Shown: one piece after another, positions 28,825 to 31,238 of the stretch | Numbering within the stretch: position 1 is the first letter of the stretch | Layout of the letters: each line of letters starts with the position of its first letter | Assembly: GCF_000021865.1 (NCBI RefSeq) | Contig: NC_014034.1 | Span: forward strand, 1,110,001-1,142,000 | DNA: 32,000 nt | Source: Rhodobacter capsulatus SB 1003 | GTDB taxonomy: Bacteria > Pseudomonadota > Alphaproteobacteria > Rhodobacterales > Rhodobacteraceae | Direction of reading: 5' to 3' | Made by a program: the position numbers and the translations under genes | The notes under the pieces: model-generated | Seen by the model: only the letters and a program-made list of their open reading frames with translations | Told to the model about the DNA's origin: nothing | Database searches by the model: none

Positions 28825-30078
28825 TCAGTCCCAATCCCGGGCCTTGCCTTCGCGGGTCAGCGGCAGGGCGCGACCGAAGCGATAGTGTTGCGGCCGCGCC
28901 GGGGCGTCAAGCCCGGCTTCGGCGCGGGCACGCAGCCGCGCCTCCAGCCCGGCTTCCGCATCGGCGGCGCAGACCACGAAAGCCTTCAGCCGGTCGCCGC
29001 CAAGCCGCAGCGCAAGCGCCTCGACCCCGGGCTCGGCTTCCAGCACGGATTTCACATGTCCCAGACGGACATTGACGCCGCCGACCTGCAGCGCCTGATC
29101 GAGGCGTCCCTCGATCACGAAGCGGACCGGCCCGGTCCAGCGCAGCCGATCCTGCAGCGGCAAGGGGGCGGGGCCGTCGGAAATCCCGTCATCGGCGCTG
29201 CGGGACAGGAACGGCAGCAGGGTGAAAGCGGCGCCGGGGGCCCTGCGCAGGCCGATGCCGCCGGTTTCCGAGGCGCCATAGACCTCGGTCAGATCCTCAA
29301 GCCCTGCCGCAAGCAGGCTGTGCCACAGCGCGTCGGGCATCGGCGCACCGGAACTGACCCCGCGCAGACCGGGCGGGAAGGCTCCGGCCGCGCCCAGATG
29401 CGCCCAAAGATGCGGCGTGGCGATGATCAGATCGCCGGGCTGCGCCGTGCGCAGCGCCGAGGCGGGCGGCGCGGCGGTCAGATCGCGCAGGGCCGCACCT
29501 GCGAGTTCTGGCAGAAGCGCCGTGAACAGGCAGCCGAACAGGTGGTGCGCGGGAACGAGCCCGATCACCGCGCCGCCGGGCGCGGGGACGAGGCCCTGAT
29601 CGCGGGCCATGCTGGCGGCTTCGCGCATCAGCTTCGGCCAGGGATGCGGGATCGGCTTTGGCGTGCCGGTCGATCCGGAGGTGCGAAACACCGCCTGCGC
29701 GGTTTCGGACCGGGCGGCCAGAAGGTCGAAATGCTGCATGATCCGGTCGATCCAGCCCTGCAGGGTCGGTTCGACATAGACGTAATCCTCGATCCCGGTG
29801 CGGGAGAGGTCGAAGAAATCGCGCACCGCCCCGATCAGGTCGAGCCGGGCGAGCGAGTCGAAGCCGAGACCCTCCTCGTCGATGCGCGGATCGCCGGTGA
29901 AGGCGGCTTCGGGCAGGATCTGGTTGCGCCCGCGCCGGGCCTCGGCGCGGATCAGGCTGATCAGAAGACGGCGCACCATCGCGGCGTCGGGGGCTTGTGG
30001 CAGGACCGCGCCGAGGCCGTCCGGGCCGGGGGCCGGGGGCGACAAGGCCCCGGAGCCGGCGCGCCGGACCTCAGGCAT
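28825..30078 (-). CDS. pcl: AMP-dependent ligase of the pyp operon (p-coumarate-activating, pcl-like) with a carrier-protein-like N-terminal segment
   Basis: Adenylate-forming motifs in order: TSGSTGTPK, EVYGASETGG, GRLDQALQVGGVNV, LPLTREGK. Start ambiguous: ATG 30078 overlaps the upstream stop by 8 nt, and ATG 29979 (MVRRLL) is also possible. Located in the operon with pyp. Confidence 0.75.
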   Translation of the reverse strand: MPEVRRAGSGALSPPAPGPDGLGAVLPQAPDAAMVRRLLISLIRAEARRGRNQILPEAAFTGDPRIDEEGLGFDSLARLDLIGAVRDFFDLSRTGIEDYVYVEPTLQGWIDRIMQHFDLLAARSETAQAVFRTSGSTGTPKPIPHPWPKLMREAASMARDQGLVPAPGGAVIGLVPAHHLFGCLFTALLPELAGAALRDLTAAPPASALRTAQPGDLIIATPHLWAHLGAAGAFPPGLRGVSSGAPMPDALWHSLLAAGLEDLTEVYGASETGGIGLRRAPGAAFTLLPFLSRSADDGISDGPAPLPLQDRLRWTGPVRFVIEGRLDQALQVGGVNVRLGHVKSVLEAEPGVEALALRLGGDRLKAFVVCAADAEAGLEARLRARAEAGLDAPARPQHYRFGRALPLTREGKARDWD

Positions 30079-30562
30079 CGTCGAGTTCATAAAGGAACTC
30101 GCCCAGAAGCGCGGCGTAATGCTGCCGGACGGCGGCAATGCGCGCCTGCAATTCGAGCGCCTGACCGTAAAGCTCTGCCGCCGACAGCCCGGCCCCGCCC
30201 AGCTTCGCCTGCGGACGCACATCCTGCGCCGGATCGAAGGCTTCGAATTGCGAAATCGCCTCGTCCAGCGTGTCGGCCTGCCAGGCGCGGAACACGTCGC
30301 GCTCGTCCACCGAGGAGAAGAAGGTCTTGATCGCCGTCACGAACCCGCCATCGGCGGTGCGGAACAGGTTGATCTCGTACCAGTAGGGCAGATCGGGCGT
30401 GAAGCTCATCGCCATGCCCAGTTCCGCGCCGCGGAATTGCAGCGGGCGCGCACCGACGCGGCGCAGGCTGTAATCCAGCATCGAGGGATCTCCATACGGG
30501 GCGGTTTCCTCGTAAGCCTGTTGGGGAGCCGCGAATTGCTTGCTTTCCGTCATATAGGCCAT
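30071..30562 (-). CDS. Hypothetical protein (163 aa), paralogous to the neighbouring 219-aa protein
   Basis: MAYMTESKQF... High GC3. Shares the RRVGARPLQFRGAEL block with RRDGARPLVFLGAAL of the upstream gene. No family recognised. Confidence 0.6.
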   Translation of the reverse strand: MAYMTESKQFAAPQQAYEETAPYGDPSMLDYSLRRVGARPLQFRGAELGMAMSFTPDLPYWYEINLFRTADGGFVTAIKTFFSSVDERDVFRAWQADTLDEAISQFEAFDPAQDVRPQAKLGGAGLSAAELYGQALELQARIAAVRQHYAALLGEFLYELDDA

Positions 30563-30578
30563 GATGCCTCCAAGTCTG

Positions 30579-31238
30579 TCACTGTTGAACCGTGCCCCGC
30601 AGATGCGACATCAGCCGCCGCGGCGCTTGGCCGAAGAAGGTTTCCATTGCCCCCCGCTCGGCCTCGCTTGGCGTCAGGCCAACCGGATCGAGCAGCAGGA
30701 CCAGAGGATCGAGCCCCGCCAGCAGCCGGGGCAGTTGCGCCAGATCCGTCACCCGCCGCGCCAGATGCATCGGACGGGCGGCCGCGACCCCCTCGATCTC
30801 GCGCTGGGCCGCGAGGACAAGGCTGTCGTCGGCGCTCAGATAAAGCGCCAGGTGCTGGCGGACCGTCACCGGGCAGTCTGCCAGCTGCAAATCGGCCGCG
30901 TCCGTCTCTTCGAGCAAGGCGGCGCCCAGAAACACGAGCGGGCGCGCGCCGTCCCGACGCAGGCGGATCCGTTCGCGCAGCGCCAAAGGGCAGGTGTCGG
31001 TGTCCCCGGCGTCGGGGGGCGGCGCCGTCACCGGCCCTTGCGCCTGCGGCCTGAGTTCCGGTTCCGGCAGAAGCGGGGCCCCCTGCCGGACCGGCGCCGC
31101 AGCGGCCCTTTCGGGCGGGCGGGCCGGCGTCGGCAGCCTGTCGGATCCCCCGGCCGGGTCCCGCCCCCGACCCGCGCGCCGCAGCTGCAGCAGCGCGGGC
31201 GAGATCGAGACGGAGATGTCGGGCCGGGGTGCGGCCAC
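30579..31238 (-). CDS. Hypothetical protein (219 aa): Pro/Arg-rich N-terminus plus a domain paralogous to the 163-aa protein
   Basis: GTG 31238 lies 3 nt after the pyp stop, with no clear RBS. GC3 is high throughout the frame. No family recognised. Confidence 0.55.
   Translation of the reverse strand: MAAPRPDISVSISPALLQLRRAGRGRDPAGGSDRLPTPARPPERAAAAPVRQGAPLLPEPELRPQAQGPVTAPPPDAGDTDTCPLALRERIRLRRDGARPLVFLGAALLEETDAADLQLADCPVTVRQHLALYLSADDSLVLAAQREIEGVAAARPMHLARRVTDLAQLPRLLAGLDPLVLLLDPVGLTPSEAERGAMETFFGQAPRRLMSHLRGTVQQ

Follow-up and report, generated by a model that had tools for sequence, protein, structure and literature searches.

How the single-domain photoactive yellow protein (PYP) transmits its signal is a question that is decades old. 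Here, we approach it through one locus in a 32,000-nucleotide stretch of the Rhodobacter capsulatus SB 1003 genome (contig NC_014034.1, positions 1,110,001 to 1,142,000; this whole stretch is referred to as the window), where two open reading frames (ORFs) lie between the PYP gene pyp and pcl, the gene for p-coumarate-CoA ligase (pCL). These ORFs, which we call ORF A and ORF B, are the third and fourth genes of a tightly packed five-gene operon with the order pbp-pyp-A-B-pcl (Table 1). Comparison of family profiles indicates that they encode diverged, distant paralogs of a single family. This A/B family has not been described before; the family is what is new here, and what we say of its function is a hypothesis.

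A preliminary description of the locus had proposed that the two proteins share a domain of about 90 residues, aligned in three blocks. The pairwise similarity of A and B is by itself marginal and too weak to establish this: BLASTP reports a single 16-residue motif (LRRxGARPLxFxGAxL, 12/16, E 0.001), and the Smith-Waterman score (z = 4.5) is attained by 3 of 2000 shuffles. When the B family (21 sequences) was compared with the A family (49 positional orthologues) by hhalign, however, the profiles matched at 95.6% with an E-value of 1.2e-8 over 93 columns, spanning the same three blocks in the same register. MAFFT, unaided, also places the A sequences onto the B domain. The family of PBP, the protein encoded upstream of pyp, served as a negative control and scored 0.2% against both the A family and the B family, so PBP was rejected as a third paralog. 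As the family profiles match, we regard the paralogy of A and B as settled.

The predicted structures of the two proteins have the same order of elements. The AlphaFold2 model of ORF B (pLDDT 81.8, pTM 0.71) contains strands at residues 29-35, 38-52, 60-69, 74-82 and 90-96, short helices, and a C-terminal helix of 35 residues (128-162). The model of ORF A has a pLDDT of 75 overall and above 80 for residues 89-218; this core comprises five beta strands, two helices and a long C-terminal helix. Ahead of the core, residues 14-23 are predicted to form a helix, which follows a short strand and precedes a Pro/Ala-rich stretch of low confidence that extends to about residue 88. The fold predicted for the family starts with a variable N-terminus, continues with an antiparallel sheet of five strands and short helices, and ends in a long C-terminal helix.

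Both ORF A and ORF B are genuine coding genes. For ORF A this had been in doubt, as the 219-codon frame starts with a GTG without a ribosome-binding site and might have been non-coding. The first part of that concern stands: the GTG is not preceded by a good Shine-Dalgarno sequence. Its distance of 3 nt from the pyp stop fits re-initiation. The second part does not stand. The GC content at third codon positions (GC3) is 0.84 in ORF A and 0.79 in ORF B. In comparison with R. capsulatus SP108, whose proteins are 88-100% identical to those of the window (100% for PYP), dN/dS is 0.39 for A, 0.10 for B, 0.00 for pyp and 0.24 for pcl, and the changes are concentrated at third positions. In about 50 species, the space between pyp and the B gene is taken up by an ORF of 143-327 aa. 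The 49 positional orthologues of ORF A have a mean identity of only 15%, yet they have VxISxELRxL, LRRDGxRPLxFxG and further blocks in common. The first of these motifs, at the N-terminus, is also found in an A-like protein from a locus without pyp (L074) and is absent from natural fusions of A and B; its conservation supports the long, GTG-started ORF A. A shorter product of 181 aa is called in other assemblies, and the internal ATG on which that call depends does not exist in the window. One might still argue that ORF A is a chance frame in GC-rich DNA and ORF B a lone orphan, given the poor start, the shorter call, the very low identity across species and a GC-rich window that is full of spurious long ORFs. 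Against the motif-bearing ORFs in some 50 species, the excess of third-position changes, the profile homology to B, the confident AlphaFold core, the natural fusions and the missing ATG, this explanation can practically be dismissed, and a non-coding ORF A is refuted by the comparative data.

Searches of Pfam, NCBIfam and the PDB sequences returned no significant match for A, B or the family as a whole, in agreement with the earlier remark that no family could be recognised; the sole sub-threshold Pfam match was to RbcX (E 0.23, 12 bits). In a collection of 5.8 billion proteins, ORF B has 20 close homologues, none with a Pfam domain, and ORF A has strain-level relatives only. A profile search over all 1.84 billion representative proteins yielded 359 clusters at E<=0.001, of which 136 at <=1e-10. 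The homologue search with the A profile, in which low-complexity words filled the candidate list, returned 8 proteins. Plasmid collections yielded no match. One member (P0020, from JGI) carries the source label 'RPA family protein', which is unsupported by the Pfam and NCBIfam scans.

Next, we focused on the operon and its relatives. ORF A and ORF B lie, with short spacers, between two genes of the same strand that the NCBIfam equivalog models TIGR02373 and TIGR02372 confirm as pyp and pcl, and their coordinates, strand and spacing are exactly as first described. The pyp stop codon (TGA, 31242-31244) is followed after 3 nt by the GTG of ORF A (31236-31238). The ORF A stop (30579-30581) is separated from ORF B by a 16-nt spacer (30563-30578) that contains a GGAGG, and ORF B (stop at 30071-30073) overlaps pcl (ATG at 30076-30078) by 8 nt. 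Promoter and terminator scans within the operon revealed nothing exceeding chance. A scan of one genome per species with ORF B found 63 loci, nearly all in Rhodobacterales. In 62 of these, pyp lies upstream of B, pcl downstream, or both, as far as the contig reaches, and distant subfamilies also adjoin pyp, pcl or the gene for tyrosine ammonia lyase (TAL). The sampled loci thus do not place the proteins mostly in genomes without pyp, the outcome that the preliminary description had named as speaking against its proposal.

The usual gene order in these loci is a gene for a helix-hairpin-helix-like (HhH-like) protein on the opposite strand, followed by pbp-pyp-A-B-pcl-gvpN...gvpA...gvpF. The pbp gene is upstream of pyp in 57 loci, and the gas-vesicle genes gvpN, gvpA and gvpF follow pcl on the same strand in 45 of the 63 species. 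R. capsulatus is unusual in that its gvp cluster is inverted: cluster and operon are convergent, with 10 nt between the stops of gvpK and pcl (28814-28825). This gap leaves no space for a terminator hairpin between the two stops. In 15 species, and in the pyp-less locus L074, the first in-frame start of B overlaps the stop of A by 4 nt, and 45 of 61 loci offer a possible start for pcl at -11 to +30 nt from the B stop.

Six loci (L003, L004, L005, L015, L045 and L053) have the order pbp-pyp-B-pcl without A, with 72-255 nt between pyp and B. Five of the six have enough flanking sequence, and these have no HhH-like gene nearby and no gvp gene in the roughly 4.5 kb downstream and 5 kb upstream; in the three that were examined with Pfam (L005, L045, L053) the cassette lies amid housekeeping genes. 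Where A is present, gvp genes are present in 46 loci and absent from two, and where A is absent they are present in none and absent from five, an association that is significant if kinship is ignored (Fisher p = 7e-6). One metagenome-assembled genome (J06630_6) splits the set over two loci, with pbp-pyp-B-pcl in L045, and gvpA, TAL, the HhH-like gene, A and a second B in L035. The PYPs of the A-less loci are slightly closer to the PYP of the window.

To see how far the family extends, the contexts of eleven further subfamily representatives were read. Two natural A-B fusions (350 and 300 aa) occupy precisely the slot between pyp and pcl, and one of them occurs in three contigs from different samples, followed by gvpN. 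Tandem sets of two or three paralogs are found in unrelated loci (L069, L070, L074, L078, L079 and L081). L070 combines three paralogs with TAL, pyp, pcl and gvpA. A 122-kb metagenome contig (L078) holds two pyp genes, TAL, a HisKA/HATPase kinase and a GGDEF-EAL protein, together with a third family member and, beside gvp genes, a full pbp-pyp-A-B-pcl cassette. This locus would be a promising one in which to dissect PYP outputs. A B-like gene lies between TAL and pcl in L073, and is followed by pcl in L078, L081 (order B-like, pcl, B-like, pyp) and L089 and by TAL in L079, where it is preceded by an MCP gene and a 159-aa gene and has pyp, pcl and gvpA nearby. Other members have no such company: a gvp cluster in L069 includes three paralogs in tandem, with no photoreceptor in view, and L074 has an A-B pair and an HhH-like gene with no pyp, pcl or gvp gene within 8 kb.

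A separate clade of B-like genes is associated with phytochromes in uncultured bacteria (L066-L068, L076/77, L083/84, L086/87 and L088). In those loci with enough sequence, the gene for a ferredoxin-dependent bilin reductase (Fe_bilin_red) invariably comes directly after the B-like gene, whereas the genes for the phytochrome (BphP), the STAS protein and heme oxygenase (HO) are arranged in different orders. The STAS protein adjoins the phytochrome. A metagenome scan with this clade gave six loci, all of them short. No gvp gene was found within 8 kb to either side in L066, the only long-flanked locus, where the B-like gene and the bilin reductase are separated by a 90-aa Ala/Pro-rich ORF. The A/B family is thus strongly but not exclusively linked to pyp, and its most constant neighbour is the last chromophore enzyme. 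The suggested link to PYP holds in so far as members lie beside pyp, pcl or TAL, but it is not specific to PYP, as members also occur in phytochrome/bilin operons and in gvp clusters without a photoreceptor gene in view.

The statement that no downstream partner of PYP had been firmly established needs correction for this PYP. PBP (RCAP_rcc01067) has been published as a dimer of 142 residues and 16 kDa with an epsilon280 of 1.55e4, which binds the long-lived UV product of the R. capsulatus PYP (Rc-PYP) and which blue light releases (bioRxiv 10.1101/2021.06.01.446672). The product of the gene ahead of pyp has 142 aa, a mass of 15,994 Da and an epsilon280 of 15,470 and is the published PBP by all three values, which neither ORF A nor ORF B matches. 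Judging by adjacency, ORF A and ORF B are presumably rcc01065 and rcc01064. Like A and B, PBP is encoded in the pyp operon, where its gene directly precedes pyp; it is a small, acidic, oligomeric protein that has been proposed as a downstream partner of the same PYP. Unlike them, it is not homologous to the family, and UV-dependent binding has been shown for it biochemically (bioRxiv 10.1101/2021.06.01.446672). Outside the Rhodobacterales-type loci, PBP was found in L078 alone. The range of the B family extends beyond that of PBP, to several pyp-pcl lineages, phytochrome/bilin-reductase genes and gas-vesicle clusters.

Earlier work bears on the locus in other ways. The link between PYP and gas-vesicle genes in R. 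capsulatus is known, from a passage that cites Kyndt 2004 (PMC3646047), and a phytochrome of Bradyrhizobium ORS278 is encoded on an island that also carries phycocyanobilin and gas-vesicle genes (PMC3899966). Two recent surveys of PYP neighbourhoods cover annotated domains only, and the A/B proteins are not mentioned in them (PMC12826048, PMC9664959). The preliminary description had also suggested that A and B might be helpers of chromophore biosynthesis or attachment; such helpers are probably not required in general: the operon of H. halophila consists of pyp-pcl-tal only (PMC12826048).

Our tentative proposal is a hetero-oligomer of A and B that serves the light-sensing module as a protein-protein adaptor, a reading that we find plausible, if somewhat short of probable. 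Pairing of A and B, probably through the sheet and the C-terminal helix, is suggested by their paralogy, the recurrent tandem sets, the 4-nt overlaps of start and stop codons and the natural fusions. The acidic, well-conserved B would be the subunit on the side of the photoreceptor and its chromophore, and the fast-evolving A, with its short N-terminal docking motif, the subunit on the side of the gas vesicles. This division is suggested because B stays with pyp and pcl, or with phytochrome and reductase genes, where A and gvp genes are absent, whereas A appears together with gvp and HhH-like genes. Light-activated PYP, together with PBP, would then change the binding partners of A-B and thereby set gas-vesicle production. 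Contacts of A and B with PYP, PBP or Gvp proteins, and the direction of the signal, are likewise our supposition. The occurrence of the family with two chemically unrelated chromophore systems, and of members with no chromophore enzyme within 8 kb, argues for partnership rather than chemistry. In addition, we count in favour of an adaptor that PYP and phytochrome systems are both linked to gas-vesicle islands in the literature, and that B, like PBP, is acidic whereas PYPs from Rhodobacterales-type loci have a basic pI (median 9.1, 96% above 8). As the PYPs beside distant family members have a pI of 5.0-8.5, this charge complementarity is not general.

In a wider form, which we consider doubtful, B-type proteins would be a common dedicated partner of two unrelated classes of photoreceptor, PYP and bilin-binding phytochromes, and would, together with A-type proteins, relay the signal to gas-vesicle formation. 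If so, the B/A relay would be a new signalling module of paired beta-platform subunits. In R. capsulatus, which is genetically tractable, A and B can be put to the test as candidates for the link that is missing between light sensing and buoyancy.

Several observations weigh against an adaptor. PBP already accounts for the light-dependent binding of Rc-PYP, and a PYP operon without B exists in H. halophila. The gene for the last chromophore enzyme nearly always follows B directly, and translational coupling between the two is common, which favours a role beside that enzyme. Every locus was found through B-family queries, and the linkage of B to pyp holds for loci selected in that way. The association of A with gvp is uncorrected for phylogeny, the A-less loci look like a single clade, and the model of ORF A was built on an alignment dominated by B-family rows.

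The junction of B with the enzyme gene is best accommodated if B is a helper coupled to the chromophore enzyme (pCL or the ferredoxin-dependent bilin reductase) and A a lineage-specific partner. Such a helper might deliver a product that is reactive or hydrophobic to the apo-photoreceptor, keep the apo-protein in an open state, or modulate the enzyme. The overlap or very short gap between B and pcl in the window and in most of the 61 loci fits this, as do the B-like genes that adjoin pcl or TAL in L073, L078, L079, L081 and L089, the invariable position of B-like genes directly 5' of Fe_bilin_red, and the retention of B in cassettes that have neither A nor gvp genes. However, there is no chemical kinship between the two enzymes or between the two chromophores, members without such an enzyme within 8 kb exist (L069, L074), no catalytic or ligand-binding signature was recognised in A or B, and H. 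halophila manages with an operon that lacks the family. We consider the helper, the chief rival of the adaptor, a real possibility that is nonetheless on the unlikely side. Holo-PYP was reportedly formed in Escherichia coli with only TAL and pCL (Kyndt et al. 2003, Biochemistry 42:965), which also speaks against a helper. If the helper exists, it would reveal an unsuspected step in the making of holo-photoreceptors, of relevance to the optogenetic use of PYP and phytochromes. Less probable still is that A and B serve the gvp cluster as factors for assembly or regulation, and that they adjoin pyp only because a photoreceptor cassette heads that cluster. The run of gvpN, gvpA and gvpF after pcl, the three paralogs within the gvp cluster of L069, and the correlation of A with gvp and HhH-like genes would follow from this directly. 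It does not explain why B is kept in five pyp-pcl loci that lack gvp genes in their flanks, or its presence in L066, the other phytochrome-clade contigs being too short to tell. Moreover, neither A nor B matches the Pfam Gvp models (GvpA/J/M, F/L, G, K, N and O), which the neighbouring gvp genes match clearly; we regard this explanation as improbable.

A different kind of function is raised by the structure comparison. Foldseek against the PDB gave no match at E <0.001 for either model, and the best match of ORF B was 3nm7, the single-repeat Pur-alpha of Borrelia (probability 0.99, TM 0.54 on the target, with a weak E-value of 0.029 and 63 of 163 residues aligned). PUR repeats have a Whirly-like beta-beta-beta-beta-alpha fold, which ORF B resembles in part, and act in homo- or heterotypic pairs, whether the two repeats belong to one chain or to a homodimer, in parallel to the A+B pairs, A-B fusions and lone B genes. 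A and B could therefore be regulators that pair such units, bind single-stranded DNA or RNA, and control expression of the operon or of gvp. The ORF A model has no match, however (best E 0.5), and B differs from PUR proteins by a fifth strand, the 35-residue C-terminal helix and its acidic charge (pI 4.4; family median about 5), which speaks against nucleic-acid binding and does not fit the basic, aromatic surface expected for it. There is no sequence similarity to PUR proteins in the PDB and no Pfam PUR or Whirly match up to E = 1. A nucleic-acid-binding pair is thus quite improbable, and the filing of A and B under Pur-alpha on the strength of this resemblance was rejected.

Other known systems offer partial parallels. 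MbtH-like proteins are small accessory proteins of about 70 aa, encoded in nonribosomal peptide synthetase clusters, that bind the adenylate-forming enzymes encoded next to them. Likewise, the B gene overlaps pcl, which codes for an adenylate-forming ligase. Neither A nor B has a Pfam MbtH match, however; B is twice the size and has a different order of fold elements, and its family also adjoins bilin reductases, which are not adenylating enzymes. The bilin lyases CpcS and CpcU are paralogous heterodimers encoded with chromophore genes; they are lipocalin-like barrels that attach a chromophore to a cysteine. In contrast, A and B match no Pfam or NCBIfam model of bilin lyases (CpcS/U/T, CpcE/F), their models consist of a five-stranded sheet and helices, and the Foldseek lists suggest no barrel. 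PYP and phytochromes are not known to need a lyase for the attachment of their chromophores. Finally, the STAS protein of the phytochrome clade holds the place of PBP next to the photoreceptor, with a B-like gene nearby. By analogy with STAS partner switching, this suggests that the signalling logic may be an exchange of small-protein partners. Unlike STAS modules, A and B have no STAS Pfam match, and no kinase or sigma factor is conserved in the loci.

The HhH-like gene lies upstream of pbp in 41 of the 63 species and is also found beside A-B pairs without pyp. Its product has an N-terminal YRARxxFVRGAARDHLRQLR motif, a middle part that is acidic and rich in Pro, and a C-terminal domain whose helix-hairpin-helix matches are sub-threshold (examples are L002:2556-3596 (-), L074:5717-6667 (-), L069:10055-10915 and L070:3-1184 (-)). 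In several lineages, the gene is directly 3' of gvpA, which is the position of GvpC elsewhere. The HhH-like protein may be an output partner or a shell protein.

Some loci contain additional weak family members (28-54 bits) near the main pair (L061:5531-5962 and 7926-8369; L062; L026:8844-9305; L040:635-1102 (-)). In L061 and L062, pcl is on the opposite strand and two B-like ORFs lie between pyp and B. As to the A-less loci, the similarity of their PYPs may reflect descent within one clade.

Table 1. Coordinates of the pyp operon and the adjacent gas-vesicle cluster in the window.
Feature	Position	Strand	Basis
pcl (p-coumarate-CoA ligase, 417 aa)	28825..30078	-	TIGR02372, 633.6 bits (cut-off 334.7); AMP-binding domains
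ORF B, B-type member of the new family (163 aa, ATG start, pI 4.4)	30071..30562	-	ORF list
Predicted core domain of ORF B, residues 29-162, including LRRVGARPLQFRGAEL (30419-30466) and the WYEIN strand	30077..30478	-	hhalign and AlphaFold
GGAGG ribosome-binding site, 4 nt ahead of the ORF B ATG (30560-30562)	30567..30571	-	read from the sequence
ORF A, A-type member of the new family (219 aa, GTG start)	30579..31238	-	ORF list and 49 positional orthologues
Predicted core domain of ORF A, residues 89-218, including LRRDGARPLVFLGAAL (30915-30962)	30585..30974	-	hhalign against the B family; AlphaFold secondary structure
N-terminal motif of ORF A, DISVSISPALLQLRR, residues 7-21 (consensus VxISxELRxL)	31176..31220	-	conserved across 49 sequences
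pyp (photoactive yellow protein, 124 aa, pI 9.4)	31242..31616	-	TIGR02373, 200.7 bits (cut-off 143)
pbp, first gene of the operon, cut by the window end (118 of 142 codons inside)	31640..32000	-	full 142-aa form in L002
Gas-vesicle cluster: GvpN-like AAA_5, GvpA/J, four GvpF/L, GvpK	22396..28814	+	Pfam matches

TAL is not present in the window. A 521-aa ORF at 20605-22170 was considered as TAL and rejected, as it encodes an enterochelin-esterase-like protein. In SP108, TAL (L002:942-2495, minus strand) adjoins the HhH-like gene, a position that corresponds to just outside this window, and 14 of the 63 species have TAL no more than 6 kb from pyp. The enterochelin-esterase-like protein belongs to a siderophore-uptake set (14399-22170) with an ABC ATPase, a FecCD permease, a periplasmic binding protein and a TonB-dependent receptor, which lies between the gvp cluster and ORFs of unknown function. 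Two of the window's ORFs, of 1255 and 790 aa on the minus strand (1689-5456 and 7129-9501), show strong signs of coding, with a GC3 of 0.86-0.87, and have no Pfam domain.

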